Origin: a phage
DNA: 64,000 nucleotides
Reading direction: 5' to 3' (one strand)
Sequence record: NC_100371.1
Shown here: positions 5,998 through 57,382 of the stretch, one piece after another
How the letters are laid out: each line of letters opens with the position of its first letter
Numbering within the stretch: position 1 is the first letter of the stretch
The notes under the pieces: generated by a model
What the model was told of the DNA's origin: nothing
The model's input: only the letters and a program-made list of their open reading frames with translations
Databases searched by the model: none
Made by a program: the position numbers and the translations under genes

Positions 5998-6312
5998 TTA
6001 CCTTTTACTATGCTCTACAAGCATGTGCAAAATCTTTTGTACATCAGCTCGGATACCGGAGACATCTGTCCTGACATCTTGCTTAAGGTCGTTAATATCG
6101 GCCTCTAGCTTACTTAACCGGGTCTCGATAATGGAATCAAGTCTATCTTTTGTAACCATGCTATTTTTCACTAAAATGAGGTCTTTCTCCAGCTCATCCA
6201 ACCTCTTGGAAATGCCTTTCCATTTGGTGTGCCACTGGTTGAAAGCCCATACACAGATCGGGACAACGGTACCCATGCAGATACCGTACAATGCCGCCAA
6301 ATCCAACTCCAC
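5998..6312 (-). CDS. small membrane protein with N-terminal TM helix and coiled coil (104 aa)
   Basis: Hydrophobic segment ALYGICMGTVVPICVWAF followed by heptad-like charged region (LDELEKDLILVKN...LSKLEADINDLKQDV). Confidence 0.4.
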   Translation of the reverse strand: MELDLAALYGICMGTVVPICVWAFNQWHTKWKGISKRLDELEKDLILVKNSMVTKDRLDSIIETRLSKLEADINDLKQDVRTDVSGIRADVQKILHMLVEHSKR

Positions 6313-42649: not shown

Positions 42650-43741
42650 TTAGATAAAACGCTTGAACATAGAAGGTGATGAGATTGATGGAATCACACA
42701 AGGCAGCGCTACCTCCTCTTTCTCCAGGAAATTAATCGCAGAAGCTACACAGTCGGCCCAGTCGTCTTTTCTGTTAAATGTTGATCTTTCCCCGTTGAAC
42801 TTTTCAAGTTCAGTCAGAAATGCTTCCAGAGTGTCAGGATGGAAACTGGATTTTACAATCCTCACCATTCCTTGTTGGGCAAGATTGGCAAAAGGTGAGA
42901 ACCTTGTCAGTTTAGATTTGTTGGAAGGCATTGGATCTTCTTCAACCCTGAACCCTTCGGCGAGCAAGGATCTGGACGAGGTTAAGAATTCACTCTTACC
43001 TGCCTGACCGGGGTCCACAGAAAATACGATTATGCAATCATCTCCATCAAACTGCGCCTGTTTCCTGATGATCACATCTCGTTCCCCAGCCTTTTTACAG
43101 AACTTACCTTCCAGACCTGTGGAATACCTACCGTCATCCACGTTCTCAGGACAATAATCTCCGGACAGGTAATAAAAGCCGTCGCTATCTTTACTTACCT
43201 TAACACTGGCGGTAAAGTCAGGAAATTTATTACCGGAAGTTCTCTCGGTTCCTGCTTTATCCCATGCCCTGCAAGATACTGATCCAAGAGGTACTCTATC
43301 GGCATCACGAAGGAAAGATCTTTGGAAATAGTTTGCACCCTCAGGTTTGGCAAACCAGTTGCCATGAAGAAGCTGGGCTTTTTCAAGCTCTGGCAGACCT
43401 TCAAGGAAAGCAAGGTATTCTGGGTTGTCTCTCAAGCAGACAGGGTTATCGAAAATTGTTGCTCCTATAAACGAGAATGACAACGGTCTTGGCTTGATCT
43501 CCACACCCAGTCCGTTAACCGTGGTGTATTTCTCTATTAACTCTTCTTTAGAGTCTCCCCAAATAAATTCACCGTCGCGTCGGATAAAATATCTTTTCTT
43601 ACCACATTTCTCCGGATCTGGATACCCTTCATCGTCCAACCACCACCTGACCAGTTTGGCAAGCATGTGTTCTGAGTCGGGGTTACAACTGATAACCATT
43701 CTTGATGGATACTTTGACTGAGATCGCAGACGAGACATCAA
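42650..43741 (-). CDS. terL: terminase large subunit, exon 2 (C-terminal part; 5' boundary approximate)
   Basis: Begins near SRMVISCNPD (motif III-like) and continues through a nuclease-type region; reading frame is open upstream into the intron, exact 3' splice site not determined. Confidence 0.65.
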   Translation of the reverse strand: MMSRLRSQSKYPSRMVISCNPDSEHMLAKLVRWWLDDEGYPDPEKCGKKRYFIRRDGEFIWGDSKEELIEKYTTVNGLGVEIKPRPLSFSFIGATIFDNPVCLRDNPEYLAFLEGLPELEKAQLLHGNWFAKPEGANYFQRSFLRDADRVPLGSVSCRAWDKAGTERTSGNKFPDFTASVKVSKDSDGFYYLSGDYCPENVDDGRYSTGLEGKFCKKAGERDVIIRKQAQFDGDDCIIVFSVDPGQAGKSEFLTSSRSLLAEGFRVEEDPMPSNKSKLTRFSPFANLAQQGMVRIVKSSFHPDTLEAFLTELEKFNGERSTFNRKDDWADCVASAINFLEKEEVALPCVIPSISSPSMFKRFI

Positions 43742-44654
43742 ATAGTCTATCTGCTCCCATTCGAATTGCGTCGTTTATGTTCGGGCAAGGTCGCTAGTCT
43801 TGCCCCGCCATTTTCAGGCAGCTGCATGTCTCCATGCAGACCAGACTATATCTTATGAATGTGCAAATACTCTGCTGCTCTAAGAATGGTTTCCTCATCC
43901 TCTTGGAAGAAACCTAAAGCTCTGTTGCATTTATCACAAAGCAACCCTCTTACAGCACCAGTTTTATGGTCATGATCAACACAAAAGAAATCTCTGTACC
44001 CTTGCGTCCTATACTCATCAAGAGATATTCTACAAATGGCACACTTATGATCTTGATCTGAGAGTAAGCGATAGTATTCATCTTTTGTTATGTGAAATTT
44101 CTTCTCAATCTGATAAAACTTTTCACACATCTTACACCTGTTCGTAACCAGATACACTTTACCATAGTCACGTTTTGTGTAAAAACTATCAGCAAGCATA
44201 CTTTCATGACAAGATTTACATTCAAAAAGCTCACCTTTCTTCAGTAAGTCTTGAATAAAAGATGCTGCATCATCTCTCTTAACCATATTTTTGTTTCTAC
44301 GAGATCCATTCTTCCTGTAGTACATATAGCATTCCTTGCATGTACCGGAGTATCCATCCTTGCTCTTAGATGATAAAAAGAAATCATCAAGAGGTAGAAC
44401 TCTTTGGCAATCCATACATTTTTTAGTATTACACATTCACCCTCCCGTTTCGAATCGCTTGATTCTACGTCTTTCGACTAGTCGTTGAACGTTCATCCTT
44501 TCGGATGCTTCGCTGCGGATTATCTAAATTAACACACTGTTACCATACCTTCGATCTCTCTTCGAAGCCTCTATCATGTTACCATGACAGGTTGGTGGTG
44601 TCAATAATAAAGATTTCCCCGCAATTAGGGAGGTTTTACGAGAGCTACAAATTA
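43742..44654 (-). mobile_element. group I intron (td-like) in terL, carrying HNH homing endonuclease ORF
   Basis: Minus strand begins UAAUUUGU... right after exon codon GGU (in-frame UAA); contains P-like AAUUGCGGGGAAA, Q-like AAUCCGCAGC, R-like GUUCAACGACUAGUC and S-like AAGAUAUAGUCU in canonical order. Confidence 0.7.
43846..44436 (-). CDS. HNH homing endonuclease (intron-encoded, 196 aa)
   Basis: Own GGGAGGG RBS; several CxxC zinc-finger pairs and HNH/EndoVII-type motif CVDHDHKTGAVRGLLCDKCNRALG; stop codon UAG lies inside the S element. Confidence 0.7.
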   Translation of the reverse strand: MCNTKKCMDCQRVLPLDDFFLSSKSKDGYSGTCKECYMYYRKNGSRRNKNMVKRDDAASFIQDLLKKGELFECKSCHESMLADSFYTKRDYGKVYLVTNRCKMCEKFYQIEKKFHITKDEYYRLLSDQDHKCAICRISLDEYRTQGYRDFFCVDHDHKTGAVRGLLCDKCNRALGFFQEDEETILRAAEYLHIHKI

Positions 44655-45080
44655 ACCCTCATCGAAGCAAACCATGGTGTACTCAAGTCCTTGATGGTTA
44701 AGCTTATCTTGGACATACTCCATGTGGCAGTATTTTACAACAGCTCCTTTTTTGCTCCTGTCCCACTTGCCAGTGCTCGGATCAAACCGTGGAAAAATAA
44801 ACTTATGATCCTTCTCTCTGAACTTTGGTTTAATGTTTTCAGGCAGATCACTGTAAATAGCTACTGCTTTAGGCCATAGCCCACCCTCACCTTCCAACTG
44901 TGGAGTTGTTCTTCGGAACATAACCACAGAGCTGTGTGGGTCATCAATAATTTTAAGCGGCATCAACTGCAGGAGGAACGACTTACCTGACCCAGCCGCA
45001 CCACCAATGACAAGAATGTCTGCATCGTTTTCCAGGATCATCTTCTGCTTTTCAGAACACGGTCCGTAAATCTTAGACAT
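44652..45080 (-). CDS. terL: terminase large subunit, exon 1 (N-terminal ATPase part)
   Basis: Walker A ILVIGGAAGSGKSF and Walker B MVCFDEG; ORF ends at TAA directly after DEG, which I read as the first intron codon. Confidence 0.7.
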   Translation of the reverse strand: MSKIYGPCSEKQKMILENDADILVIGGAAGSGKSFLLQLMPLKIIDDPHSSVVMFRRTTPQLEGEGGLWPKAVAIYSDLPENIKPKFREKDHKFIFPRFDPSTGKWDRSKKGAVVKYCHMEYVQDKLNHQGLEYTMVCFDEG

Positions 45081-45367
45081 TAACCTCTCTCCTTTGGAAA
45101 CAGTGTTCTAATATAGTCTTGCAAAATGATCAATTTAGCCCTATCATTACTGCAAGACAGGTTATTATCCCTCATAATGCCAGAATTCACCGCATCAGGC
45201 GCACCTTTCTTTAAAGGTATAGCTTTAGCAGGAGGCTTCATAGCACCCTCGGGAGGTTTAACAATCAACCTTCCTACATCCGGAGGGTCAATCTTGTATT
45301 CTCTCTCAACGCTGGTTGCACACCCACACAATAACAAGCACAAAACAACCAGTGCAGTAACTCTCAT
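45080..45367 (-). CDS. o-spanin-like outer-membrane lipoprotein (95 aa)
   Basis: Signal peptide with Cys-containing lipobox-like LLLCGC; Pro-rich (PPDVGRLIVKPPEGAMKPPAKAIP); overlaps i-spanin stop by 4 nt. Confidence 0.5.
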   Translation of the reverse strand: MRVTALVVLCLLLCGCATSVEREYKIDPPDVGRLIVKPPEGAMKPPAKAIPLKKGAPDAVNSGIMRDNNLSCSNDRAKLIILQDYIRTLFPKERG

Positions 45368-45762
45368 CGAACCTCCTGATTGATACTCTCATTATAAATA
45401 TCTATTAGCTGATCAGGAAGTGTTGACTTCTTACCTTCAGGAGATTGGAGGTAGATAATCTGCTTTTCTTTGCCTGCCTTCTCAGCCATATTTAATTTAT
45501 CCTGTAGATCAGAAAGAGATTTTTCAAGGTTTTTAACCTCCTCTGCGTGGCCCATTTTAATTTTGTCGGCCTGCTTTTGTTGTTGGTCAAGGATCCGTTC
45601 CCACTTTAACTCTGTTGCTGACACACCTTCTTGATAAGCATCATTGAGCTTAGAGTTAAACCAATACACGGCCCCAAGATAAGCCATACCTATAGCCGCT
45701 GCAAAAACTAAACCTTTTATGATCCCTCTGTGTTTACTCATCAATGTTAAAACTGAAATCAT
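45364..45762 (-). CDS. i-spanin-like protein (132 aa)
   Basis: N-terminal TM helix (GIIKGLVFAAAIGMAYLGAVYWF) followed by coiled-coil region; GGAG RBS. Confidence 0.5.
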   Translation of the reverse strand: MISVLTLMSKHRGIIKGLVFAAAIGMAYLGAVYWFNSKLNDAYQEGVSATELKWERILDQQQKQADKIKMGHAEEVKNLEKSLSDLQDKLNMAEKAGKEKQIIYLQSPEGKKSTLPDQLIDIYNESINQEVR

Positions 45763-45781
45763 TTTTAAGGCTCCAGAAACG

Positions 45782-45812
45782 AAAAAACCCCGCAGCTATA
45801 CAGCTAACGGGG
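45782..45812 (-). terminator. intrinsic terminator (minus strand) downstream of tRNA cluster
   Basis: CCCCG...CGGGG stem with inner AGCU/AGCU pairing followed by UUUUUUCG on minus strand. Confidence 0.55.
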
Positions 45813-45868
45813 CGGGTTAAAATTGAGTAACCTAAATAGATCGAAACTAACTAAAAGGAGACTAATAC

Positions 45869-46138
45869 TTATCGAGGCACTCGGTGGATGATTCTGACAG
45901 TAACCGCATTCTCATTCATCAAGTAAGCATCCACATCTCTGTAAATATAAAACTTCTGCTCGCTATCAACAACACAAGCTACTGCCCCTTCAGAGTTGTC
46001 TTCAAAGAAGACCACAACTGCATCGCAGCTTAGTTCATGATACGACTCTCGAAGATTTACAGCAAGAGGGTTGAAATCGTCACGAAGATCTAAAGTATGG
46101 GTTGGATTTACACGTTCTACAATTTTAAGTGTATACAT
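45869..46138 (-). CDS. hypothetical protein (89 aa)
   Basis: ORF between tRNA cluster and terminator. Confidence 0.35.
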   Translation of the reverse strand: MYTLKIVERVNPTHTLDLRDDFNPLAVNLRESYHELSCDAVVVFFEDNSEGAVACVVDSEQKFYIYRDVDAYLMNENAVTVRIIHRVPR

Positions 46139-46184
46139 TTTAAAGGTTCCTTTTGTGTGTATATATTTAAAGTATAACTAAAGG

Positions 46185-46261
46185 TGGTCTCCACGGAGTG
46201 ATTCGAACACTCGACCTCCTGATCCCAAATCAGGCGCTCTACCAAGCTGAGCTACGCGGAG
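46185..46261 (-). tRNA. tRNA-Pro (anticodon UGG)
   Basis: Manual fold: acceptor CUCCGCG/CGUGGAG, anticodon arm CCUGA-UUUGGGA-UCAGG, T-arm GAGUG-UUCGAAU-CACUC, encoded CCA. Confidence 0.75.
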
Positions 46262-46424: not shown

Positions 46425-46430
46425 AAAAGG

Positions 46431-46527
46431 TGCTAGGTGATGGAATCGAACCATCTATGTATTCAACGACTACCTCGTCTATTTTCAGGATTAAAAATCC
46501 TCGCCCTTGCCAAAGGGCTTACCTAGC
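46431..46527 (-). tRNA. atypical tRNA-like gene (97 nt; Lys-like UUUUUAA loop; identity unresolved)
   Basis: Perfect 7-bp acceptor GCUAGGU/ACCUAGC, D-arm GCCC-UUUGGCAA-GGGC, T-arm GAUGG-UUCGAUU-CCAUC, but 46 nt between D- and T-arms; no encoded CCA. Confidence 0.4.
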
Positions 46528-46830: not shown

Positions 46831-46918
46831 TGGTGGTGAGTGATGGAGTCGAACCACCCGAATCGCAATGATAACAGATTTACAGTCTGCCCCGCTACCC
46901 CTACGGAATTAACTCACC
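46831..46918 (-). tRNA. tRNA-Tyr (anticodon GUA), class II
   Basis: Manual fold: acceptor GGUGAGU/ACUCACC, anticodon arm GCAGA-CUGUAAA-UCUGU, long variable arm, T-loop UUCGACU, CCA. Confidence 0.7.
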
Positions 46919-55948: not shown

Positions 55949-56419
55949 ATGAAACTTGATAAAAATGTTCAACGAAAAGCTTTCTTGGATATGATCGCAT
56001 ATTCAGAAGGTACAGATAATGGTAGACAACCTACCAAGGATCGGGGCTATGATGTCATAGTCGGTGGCAAGCTGTTTAGCGATTACAGTAAGCATCCAGG
56101 TGTTTACGTTAAGCTAAATGCTAAACTTACCTCCTCTGCTGCTGGGCGTTACCAGATTTTGGAGAAGTTTGCTAAACACTATATGGAACAGTTAGGATTA
56201 CCAGATTTTGGCCCTGCCAGTCAGGACAAGATTGCATTGCAACTGATCCGTGAGTGTAAGGCTCTCACTGACATTGACGAAGGTCGCATCCACGAAGCTA
56301 TCCGCAAATGCCGTTCCCGCTGGGCTTCGTTACCCGGTGCCGGATACGGTCAGCATGAACAGAAGATTGAGAAGTTGATCGAGGTGTTTAAAAAGGCAGG
56401 CGGCATTGTCCTAGATTAA
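55949..56419 (+). CDS. endolysin, lambda R-like lytic transglycosylase
   Basis: Near-identical blocks to lambda R as I recall it: QRKAFLDMIAYSEGTDNGRQ, GYDVIVGG, AGRYQ, WASLPGAGYGQ. Confidence 0.8.
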   Translation: MKLDKNVQRKAFLDMIAYSEGTDNGRQPTKDRGYDVIVGGKLFSDYSKHPGVYVKLNAKLTSSAAGRYQILEKFAKHYMEQLGLPDFGPASQDKIALQLIRECKALTDIDEGRIHEAIRKCRSRWASLPGAGYGQHEQKIEKLIEVFKKAGGIVLD

Positions 56420-56482: not shown

Positions 56483-56689
56483 ATGAAAGATTTTCTGTTG
56501 GCAATTTTGTTCATGGCAGCATGTCTGGCCTGTGGTGTCGTGTTTGCAGGTGAAACAGCGTATCTTGTCGATGTATATCGGGACAATGGTAAACGTATTT
56601 GCCTTTATGAAACAAGCCAAGGTGAGCTCTACGAGCTTGTTAAACAAGGCGAGGCTGGATCTTGTCCTCGGACTCACTTCTTCGAATAA
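56483..56689 (+). CDS. small membrane protein, candidate holin or lysis accessory (68 aa)
   Basis: Single N-terminal hydrophobic segment FLLAILFMAACLACGVVFA; directly downstream of endolysin. Confidence 0.3.
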   Translation: MKDFLLAILFMAACLACGVVFAGETAYLVDVYRDNGKRICLYETSQGELYELVKQGEAGSCPRTHFFE

Positions 56690-56699
56690 GGTTGGTAGT

Positions 56700-56918
56700 A
56701 TGGCTTTAGAAGGCACTGATTATATTCACGATTACCGTGGGAGTGCAGTGTATGTGGGCGATACTGTTGCAGTATACTACGGTTATGGTTCCCTAGAAAC
56801 AGCGAAGGTCATACAGATCAAGAATGACCGTGCTAAGCTTGAAGTTTATTACTCTAATGGTGAAAGATCGATTTCTAAGTGGAAAGATGGTCATTGTATG
56901 GTCAAATTGGAGGGCTGA
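56700..56918 (+). CDS. hypothetical protein (72 aa)
   Basis: ORF from ATG 56700; ORF-track start at 56532 probably too far upstream. Confidence 0.3.
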   Translation: MALEGTDYIHDYRGSAVYVGDTVAVYYGYGSLETAKVIQIKNDRAKLEVYYSNGERSISKWKDGHCMVKLEG

Positions 56919-57382
56919 TGGAAGACGGACGTTTAATGAAGTCTGAACGCAGGCTTATTGTGCAGCTGATCCCAGAAACAGCTTGGTATAATAATCTCCG
57001 AAACGCTGTGAAGAAGAGTGAGTGGGATAAGATCCGTAAGAAGTGCTACAGAGAAGCCAACTATACTTGTGAGGTGTGCGGCGGTAAAGGCAGCAAACAT
57101 CCGGTGGAGTGTCATGAACTTTACACTTTCGAAGAGGGAGTGATCCGGCTTGTCGGACTGATAGCGTTGTGCCCAGATTGTCACACATCGGTGCATCCTG
57201 GGTTAGCAAATATCCGTGGAAAGTATGCTCAGGCAGTTAATCAGTTGGCTAAGGTGAATAAGATCACCAAGGGTATGGCAGAGGCCTATTACCGAGACTG
57301 CTTTGCAGAATGGCGGGAGCTTAGCAAAGTTCCTGAATGGAGAACTGACTTTTCGTGGATAGAGGGTTACCTTGATGGCTAA
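56918..57382 (+). CDS. HNH-like zinc-finger nuclease family protein
   Basis: CEVCGG...ECHELY...LCPDCHTSVH pattern; GGAGGG RBS; ATGA overlap with upstream ORF. Confidence 0.35.
   Translation: MEDGRLMKSERRLIVQLIPETAWYNNLRNAVKKSEWDKIRKKCYREANYTCEVCGGKGSKHPVECHELYTFEEGVIRLVGLIALCPDCHTSVHPGLANIRGKYAQAVNQLAKVNKITKGMAEAYYRDCFAEWRELSKVPEWRTDFSWIEGYLDG

Follow-up and report, generated by a model that had tools for sequence, protein, structure and literature searches.

Two small open reading frames lie one after the other on the minus strand, immediately upstream of the terminase large subunit gene (terL), in the 64,000 nt of phage DNA analysed here, which we refer to as the window. We call them the i-spanin gene and the o-spanin gene, names that reflect a prediction discussed below. 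The locus comprises the following features.

45782..45813, minus strand: strong, terminator-like hairpin with a U-run, GCCCCGUUAGCUGUAUAGCUGCGGGG-UUUUUUCGUUUC, found by folding and ending 20 nt before the i-spanin ATG
45364..45762, minus strand: candidate i-spanin gene, 132 aa, from the open reading frame and its translation
45080..45367, minus strand: candidate o-spanin gene, 95 aa, from the open reading frame and its translation; predicted outer-membrane lipoprotein precursor
44655..45080, minus strand: terL exon 1, its ATG overlapping the o-spanin stop codon and its reading frame ending after 142 codons
43772..44654, minus strand: putative group I intron of terL, 883 nt, with breakpoints set by comparison with the intact terL of phage ECP2303 (1548 nt)
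43846..44436, minus strand: endonuclease VII/HNH-type open reading frame within the terL intron, 196 aa (PF02945, 2e-21)
42650..43771, minus strand: terL exon 2, from comparison with ECP2303 terL

The gene for the i-spanin overlaps that for the o-spanin by 4 nt (ATGA), and the stop codon of the latter shares 1 nt with the terL start codon (TAATG), the ATG of which lies at 45080. Shine–Dalgarno sequences precede both spanin genes (GGAG and AGGAGG). An earlier reading of the same DNA, made from the letters alone (the sequence-only reading), had placed the two frames at these positions with a 4 nt overlap between them and an end 1 nt into the terL start; its positions and overlaps were exact. The minus-strand location of the pair was left unstated there.

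The two proteins were compared with the criteria for two-component spanins of Summer 2007 and Kongari 2018, among them at least one periplasmic Cys. The i-spanin displayed a single, N-terminal transmembrane domain (TMD): a hydrophobic helix spans approximately residues 14–35 (GLVFAAAIGMAYLGAVYWF; best 19-residue Kyte–Doolittle mean of 1.94, residues 14–32), residues 1–16 supply three Lys or Arg residues ahead of it (K10, R12 and K16), and the hydrophobicity scan returned no second TMD in this protein. The remaining 97 residues after the helix are 34 % charged and free of Cys. AF2 models of both spanins were single-sequence models of modest confidence. That of the i-spanin (pLDDT 72.9) comprised a helix at residues 2–99, a disordered stretch at 100–114 and a second helix at 115–131, and hydrophobic residues were moderately enriched at heptad a/d positions between residues 60 and 99 (0.64 vs 0.17). 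In the predicted layout, therefore, a membrane helix at the N-terminus is followed by a long helix in the periplasm, then by a linker and finally by a conserved C-terminal helix with a DIYNES motif. This bears out the earlier description of the protein as i-spanin-like with a transmembrane segment and a coiled coil, in that a TMD is followed by a mainly helical domain with a linker, the heptad periodicity being only moderate.

The o-spanin begins MRV-TALVVLCLL-LLCG-C, ending in the lipobox LLCG-C, in which Cys16 is the predicted lipidated residue under a PROSITE PS51257-type rule. The +2 residue is Ala, without Asp, in agreement with sorting to the outer membrane. The mature protein of 80 aa contains nine Pro residues, eight of them within its first 45 residues, so that the earlier description of an o-spanin-like, Pro-rich protein with a lipobox Cys was well founded. 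In the window, seven of the 405 six-frame open reading frames of at least 40 aa passed the lipoprotein rule, and the o-spanin was the sole genuine gene among them, the other six being short antisense or out-of-frame frames. One further Cys (C72), predicted to be periplasmic, lies nearer the C-terminal interface and is the only periplasmic Cys of the pair, the i-spanin having none. A periplasmic Cys is available for a homotypic disulfide in 507 of 528 spanin systems (Kongari 2018, PMC6139136), and in pairs with a single periplasmic Cys this residue lies nearer the C-terminal interface (Kongari et al. 2018, PMC6139136), a description with which the placement of C72 agrees. The AF2 model of the o-spanin was of low confidence (pLDDT 60.8) and, given this, was taken for secondary structure only; it comprised a signal helix at residues 2–14, a long coil and a helix at 75–89. 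The C-terminal helix is predicted to be amphipathic and the Pro-rich region extended.

Over the 1.6 kb around the spanin pair, 119 phage records showed 94–98 % identity to the window. Almost all belong to Vequintavirus, the rV5-like E. coli myophages, and many of the 119 annotate an i-spanin, an o-spanin and a terminase large subunit. The counterparts in the rV5 RefSeq record are gp068 (i-spanin), gp067 (o-spanin) and gp065 (terL). Searching with tblastn and the o-spanin recovered 191 phage records. The i-spanin matched phrog_4297, annotated ‘Rz-like spanin’ (1.4e-48; residues 1–130 of the 130-position profile), and the o-spanin matched phrog_1267, also annotated ‘Rz-like spanin’ (4.3e-22; residues 2–93). 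Scans of both proteins against Pfam (E≤0.01) and NCBIfam (E≤0.001) returned no family, Rz and Rz1 included, and homology to lambda Rz/Rz1 therefore cannot be claimed.

Conservation was assessed across five lineages, namely Vequintavirus, Seunavirus, Henunavirus, Avunavirus and a Klebsiella relative. The membrane helix of the i-spanin was conserved across five genera, and the lipobox residues G15-C16 of the o-spanin were invariant in six sequences from the five lineages. Invariant motifs were also found at both C-termini in the five lineages, DIYN-S in the i-spanin and K-L..LQ.Y....F in the o-spanin. A C-terminal interaction between i-spanin and o-spanin is known from lambda Rz/Rz1, and the co-conserved C-terminal motifs seen here fit such an interaction. 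Cys72 is a Vequintavirus feature, absent outside that genus in the sequences compared. Measured against rV5, dN/dS was 0.24 for the i-spanin and 0.11 for the o-spanin, indicative of purifying selection. That the two frames are open by chance, or are functionless leftovers of decayed genes, has practically no likelihood of being correct; their small size alone speaks for it, and it is effectively refuted by the conservation data, given the dN/dS values of 0.11–0.24 and the retention of both frames in more than 190 phage genomes with key motifs intact down to 30–44 % protein identity. The ribosome-binding sites GGAG and AGGAGG are likewise good ones.

Taken together, the signal and topology, predicted structure, PHROG families, cross-genus conservation, and GenBank annotation and literature point to a two-component spanin encoded by these two open reading frames in a Vequintavirus (rV5-like) phage, a reading to which we assign a probability of approximately 0.9. 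The spanin annotations of the rV5-type family themselves all trace back to sequence features. Small phage lipoproteins with a role in superinfection exclusion or receptor blocking exist, and the lipoprotein might instead be one of these (Cor/Llp-like), with the membrane protein an unrelated partner and neither of them lytic; a position outside the lysis cassette would suit such proteins. We regard this as very unlikely, as a TMD-plus-helix protein followed by an overlapping Pro-rich lipoprotein is the defining spanin signature, the C-termini of the two proteins are co-conserved, and the pair heads the late block and does not lie among early genes. Furthermore, the hydrophobicity and lipoprotein scan of the window returned no second spanin candidate, and relatives annotate none elsewhere.

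Downstream of the predicted spanin pair, terL is split. The gene portion adjoining the o-spanin, called simply terL in the sequence-only reading, is exon 1 only (44655..45080). Joining 45080..44655 to 43771..42650 in silico yielded a TerL of 515 aa that was 100 % identical to that of ECP2303. Rfam family RF00028 matched 43822..44664 over the full model length (47.9 bits, E 4e-10), the gathering score of 50 lying just above this value. As expected for a group I intron, U is the last nucleotide of the 5′ exon and G that of the intron. Introns in rV5-type terL have already been reported (LL12 genome announcement; rV5 paper, PMC3606486). The terL of ECP2303 has no intron, that in the window has one and that of rV5 has two. 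The rV5 intron at the same site is 320 nt long and lacks the endonuclease VII/HNH-type open reading frame, whilst the second rV5 intron, of 979 nt with a different HNH gene, is absent from the window.

The proximity to terL also raises the question of whether the two small proteins serve packaging as accessory factors, standing in, for instance, for the small terminase subunit. The pair occupies the usual terS slot, overlaps terL by the 1 nt of TAATG, and no terS is annotated beside terL in rV5 or its relatives. However, a membrane helix and an invariant lipobox would place both proteins outside the cytoplasm, and neither showed a DNA-binding or terS family match in PHROG, Pfam or NCBIfam. In other genera, 95–130 nt separate the o-spanin from terL, and the coupling is therefore not conserved. 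A packaging role is thus extremely unlikely, and the spanin assignment is retained in what follows.

The remaining lysis functions were sought in the rest of the window, where two further open reading frames are relevant.

55949..56419, plus strand: lambda-R-type endolysin with a lytic transglycosylase fold (phrog_90, 7.6e-56; PDB 1AM7, lambda lysozyme, E 4e-56 over the whole length)
56483..56689, plus strand: open reading frame of 68 aa with one hydrophobic segment (residues 4–22) and a lipobox-like FMAAC (phrog_4641)

The first of these is annotated as endolysin or lysozyme in relatives and lies at the end of a nucleotide and DNA metabolism block (ligase, exonuclease, polymerase). A distance of 10.2 kb separates it from the start of the i-spanin gene, which lies on the other strand, and the sequence-only reading, which had proposed a lambda R-like endolysin approximately 10 kb away on the other strand, was correct on the match to 1AM7, the distance and the strand. 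The protein, a soluble homologue of lambda R, has no N-terminal hydrophobic segment or signal-anchor and therefore should need a holin. The 68 aa frame beside it had been put forward as a holin candidate, a proposal that gained no support. Its family, phrog_4641, carries no assigned function; none of 120 relatives annotates it as a holin, the only descriptions being ‘hypothetical’ or ‘putative membrane protein’; and with its one hydrophobic segment it displayed neither a match to a known holin family nor the alternative holin layout of at least two TMDs and a C-terminal tail that is charged and cytoplasmic. It could still be an unusual holin with a single TMD. A hydrophobicity scan of the window for other holin candidates returned one small membrane open reading frame on a real coding strand (5998..6312, minus strand; phrog_5345, function unassigned). 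The rV5 paper proposes as holin gp129 (78 aa, two TMDs), which is encoded at a third locus (PMC3606486), and the LL12 genome announcement states that a holin could not be identified.

The earlier proposal that lysis functions are split across two loci accordingly survives in part: it stands for the spanins relative to the endolysin, and the place it gave to a holin beside the endolysin is unsupported. Its further claim of two transcription units holds trivially, because the endolysin is on the strand opposite to the spanins. The lysis genes probably occupy at least three loci, resembling those of T4, in which e, t and pseT.2/pseT.3 are unlinked (PMC6139136).

Upstream of the i-spanin, the hairpin at 45782..45813 falls within an intergenic region of 106 nt (45763–45868). 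This region was 100 % identical to those of rV5 and ECP2303, whereas the flanking genes differed by 6–8 % from rV5; with an identity of 99 % or higher in 113 of 118 records, it is close to invariant in the genus. Several intergenic regions are free of mismatches, this one being the longest, and intergenic regions were in general more conserved than genes (95.6 % vs 93.5 %). The region was considered as an exceptional element and dropped as such, since intergenic conservation is general and other mismatch-free regions exist. When scanned for promoters, the 106 nt contained neither a site resembling the sigma-70 consensus nor the rV5 ‘late’ motif TGGTAAAATA, and an Rfam search (E≤0.1) returned nothing there. 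Table S4 of the rV5 paper likewise lists neither a promoter nor a terminator at this region. The order of hairpin, ribosome-binding site and start codon is repeated at other late-gene junctions.

The hairpin is more likely to be one of several intra-operon attenuators or mRNA stabilisers than part of a dosage or timing device. The latter would combine the hairpin, the conserved 106 nt and the ATGA/TAATG coupling to tie outer-membrane competence to the onset of packaging, and we consider it improbable. If true, it would constitute a regulatory link between lysis and packaging not previously described, with read-through or an unrecognised promoter as the sole source of spanins and terminase. Genes 27–81 of rV5 are treated as one minus-strand unit (PMC3606486), and we infer that expression of the spanins and terL depends on read-through or on a promoter that escaped recognition; the timing of spanin expression is deduced from gene position only.

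Under the spanin assignment, a mechanism can be proposed by analogy with lambda Rz/Rz1 and T4 PseT.3/PseT.2. It starts from the sequence features, family membership, synteny and conservation described above, from which we infer where the proteins are located, that they form a complex and fuse membranes, and when they are expressed. The N-terminal helix of the i-spanin would anchor it in the inner membrane, with a helical rod projecting into the periplasm. The o-spanin would be exported, lipidated at Cys16 and sorted to the outer membrane via the Ala at +2, from where its Pro-rich extended segment would reach inward. The two proteins would then bind each other through their conserved C-terminal helices, creating a bridge that spans the periplasm and is threaded through the peptidoglycan, and Cys72 of the o-spanin probably forms a homodimer disulfide. 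Once the remote endolysin, let out by a holin, had degraded the wall, the spanin complexes would be freed and would disrupt the outer membrane, its fusion with the inner membrane being the probable route. The minus-strand block of packaging and head genes has this pair, located after the terminator-like hairpin, as its first protein-coding element, and the ATGA and TAATG overlaps appear to couple the pair translationally to terL. From this position and coupling it would follow that spanin production goes with the late morphogenesis genes, separately from that of the plus-strand endolysin.

The arrangement described here has precedents in the literature. The rv5 i-spanin family has been filed under the ‘separated’ architecture, and the rv5 o-spanin family has seven members (Kongari et al. 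2018, PMC6139136). The LL12 genome announcement names an endolysin, an i-spanin and an o-spanin, and the location of the spanin pair beside terL and outside the lysis cassette has been noted for rV5, PVP-SE1 and CB7, with a similar spanin arrangement in SP6 and VP4 (Buttimer et al. 2020, PMC7344957). In sum, a spanin pair beside terL and remote from the endolysin is already published, conserved in the rV5-like group and ordinary. It has little significance beyond correct annotation, scattered lysis genes of the T4 kind being the rule in rV5-like phages. The pair does confirm that spanins are recognisable from raw sequence alone. The question it touches is where the holin is located in rV5-like phages, which are used therapeutically, and to this the window gives no answer.

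Among known systems, the closest counterparts are rV5 gp068/gp067 (ORF 67/66) and their Vequintavirus orthologues, with 91–94 % protein identity to the spanins in the window. In rV5 the overlaps are the same, the order is i-spanin, o-spanin and terL, and the opposite-strand endolysin lies approximately 10 kb away, with no difference as far as the spanins are concerned. The o-spanins of EduardKellenberger and B9-1 were 100 % identical to that in the window. More distant pairs were found in SSE121 (Salmonella, Seunavirus), Hena1 (Erwinia, Henunavirus), K54_rec4 (Klebsiella) and Av-05 (Escherichia, Avunavirus), which display the same gene order and 4 nt i-spanin/o-spanin overlap with terL next, yet share only 27–44 % protein identity with the spanins in the window. 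These four phages differ from the window in two further respects: their o-spanin and terL are separated by the 95–130 nt gap, as opposed to the TAATG overlap, and an open reading frame of 269–485 aa (phrog_16176, function unassigned) overlaps the i-spanin start, where the window has the hairpin-containing intergenic region. Neither subunit of SSE121, Hena1 and the Klebsiella phage has a periplasmic Cys, whereas Av-05 has one, in the i-spanin. In Certrevirus (CB7_252/253) and PVP-SE1, a spanin pair of the same families as in these four phages and the window likewise lies just upstream of terL and outside the lysis cassette (PMC7344957).

At E≤1e-3, tblastn with the o-spanin returned only Vequintavirinae-type phages, with no similarity to T4 detected. 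Scattered lysis genes have their classic precedent in T4. Its i-spanin, PseT.3, and its o-spanin, PseT.2, likewise come from two ‘separated’ genes unlinked to the endolysin gene e and the holin gene t, and they likewise comprise a Cys-less i-spanin and an o-spanin for which a C-terminal helix is predicted (PMC6139136). Two Cys residues are essential in the T4 o-spanin, as against the single Cys of the o-spanin in the window, and the T4 spanin genes, unlike those in the window, do not adjoin terL. Lambda Rz/Rz1 belong to the same functional class, with the same predicted topology and a lambda-R-type endolysin as partner. In lambda, however, the S-R-Rz/Rz1 cassette contains both genes, with Rz1 embedded in Rz, whereas the predicted spanins in the window are encoded by separate genes remote from the endolysin.

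The spanin pair is preceded on the minus strand by a short intergenic region, with predicted tRNA genes further upstream:

45763-45868, minus strand: intergenic region of 106 nt directly upstream of the i-spanin gene
45782-45813, minus strand: strong terminator-like hairpin within this intergenic region
46429-46527, minus strand: tRNA-like gene of 99 nt with a 4-base anticodon (ARAGORN; Rfam tRNA model, 37.5 bits)
46834-46918, minus strand: further tRNA gene (Rfam)

Alignment of the intergenic region with rV5 revealed zero mismatches, while the flanking genes differed by approximately 7 %. Among 118 records, 113 showed an identity of 99 % or more across this region. No recognizable promoter was found within its 106 nt, and the hairpin is absent from the listing in the rV5 paper. 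Comparable layout and conservation were observed at other late intergenic regions of the window. The rV5 'late' motif TGGTAAAATA, allowing at most one mismatch, was present in 16 copies compared with 5.9 expected by chance. These copies, 13 of which lay on the minus strand, spanned positions 4218-42626, and several fell within late intergenic regions (e.g. 32898, 36420 and 42617); none of the 16 was located upstream of the spanin genes. The tRNA gene at 46834-46918, which was not detected by the ARAGORN scan, corresponds to rV5 tRNA-Tyr, whereas rV5 has no tRNA annotated at the position matching 46429-46527.

On the other side of the spanin genes, terL was found to be interrupted:

43772-44654, minus strand: predicted group I intron of 883 nt in terL
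43846-44436, minus strand: endonuclease VII/HNH-type ORF inside this intron

The TerL protein obtained by joining the exons was 100 % identical to that of ECP2303, the terL gene of which has no introns. rV5 shares the intron present in the window but without the endonuclease VII/HNH-type ORF, and its terL contains an additional intron in which a different HNH gene resides. Judging from these three sequences, predicted intron content in terL varies within the genus.

A further variable region adjoins the endolysin gene. Matches of most relatives ended at around position 56691, just past the 68-aa ORF (56483-56689, plus strand), and the stretch that follows, 56690-57382 (plus strand), was common to only 5 of 120 records. 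We interpret this stretch as a putative variable insertion hotspot, containing:

within 56690-57382, plus strand: phrog_2112 ORF
56879-57382, plus strand: free-standing HNH endonuclease gene (phrog_5200)

The 68-aa ORF itself had been proposed as a holin candidate in the sequence-only reading. It belongs to phrog_4641, a family without functional annotation. Its product has a single hydrophobic segment, located at the N-terminus and including a lipobox-like FMAAC (Cys14), followed by a 45-aa tail containing Cys; this layout seems closer to that of small exported proteins or lipoproteins than to that of typical holins. Another small membrane ORF was identified in the tail-fibre region:

5998-6312, minus strand: 104-aa ORF (phrog_5345, a family without functional annotation)

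Its N-terminal membrane helix and subsequent charged helical region correspond to a predicted i-spanin-like or holin-like topology, and no lipoprotein partner was found downstream.

Eighteen GenBank records (MG0656xx) are titled 'Campylobacter phage', with C. jejuni as the stated host. These records were approximately 94 % identical to positions 44600-46200 of the window, an E. coli Vequintavirus sequence, and their host labels look doubtful.

Cys72 of the o-spanin was specific to Vequintavirus. Neither spanin subunit of SSE121 (Seunavirus), Hena1 (Henunavirus) or Klebsiella phage K54_rec4 contained a periplasmic Cys, and these systems therefore belong to the Cys-less minority, which accounted for 21 of 528 in the survey of Kongari et al. 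(2018; PMC6139136). In other Vequintavirinae genera (L003-L006, comprising these phages and the Avunavirus Av-05), the i-spanin start is overlapped by 4 nt by a 269-485 aa phrog_16176 protein with a weakly nucleotidyltransferase-like N-terminus, whereas Vequintavirus has an 89-aa ORF and then the hairpin region in its place.
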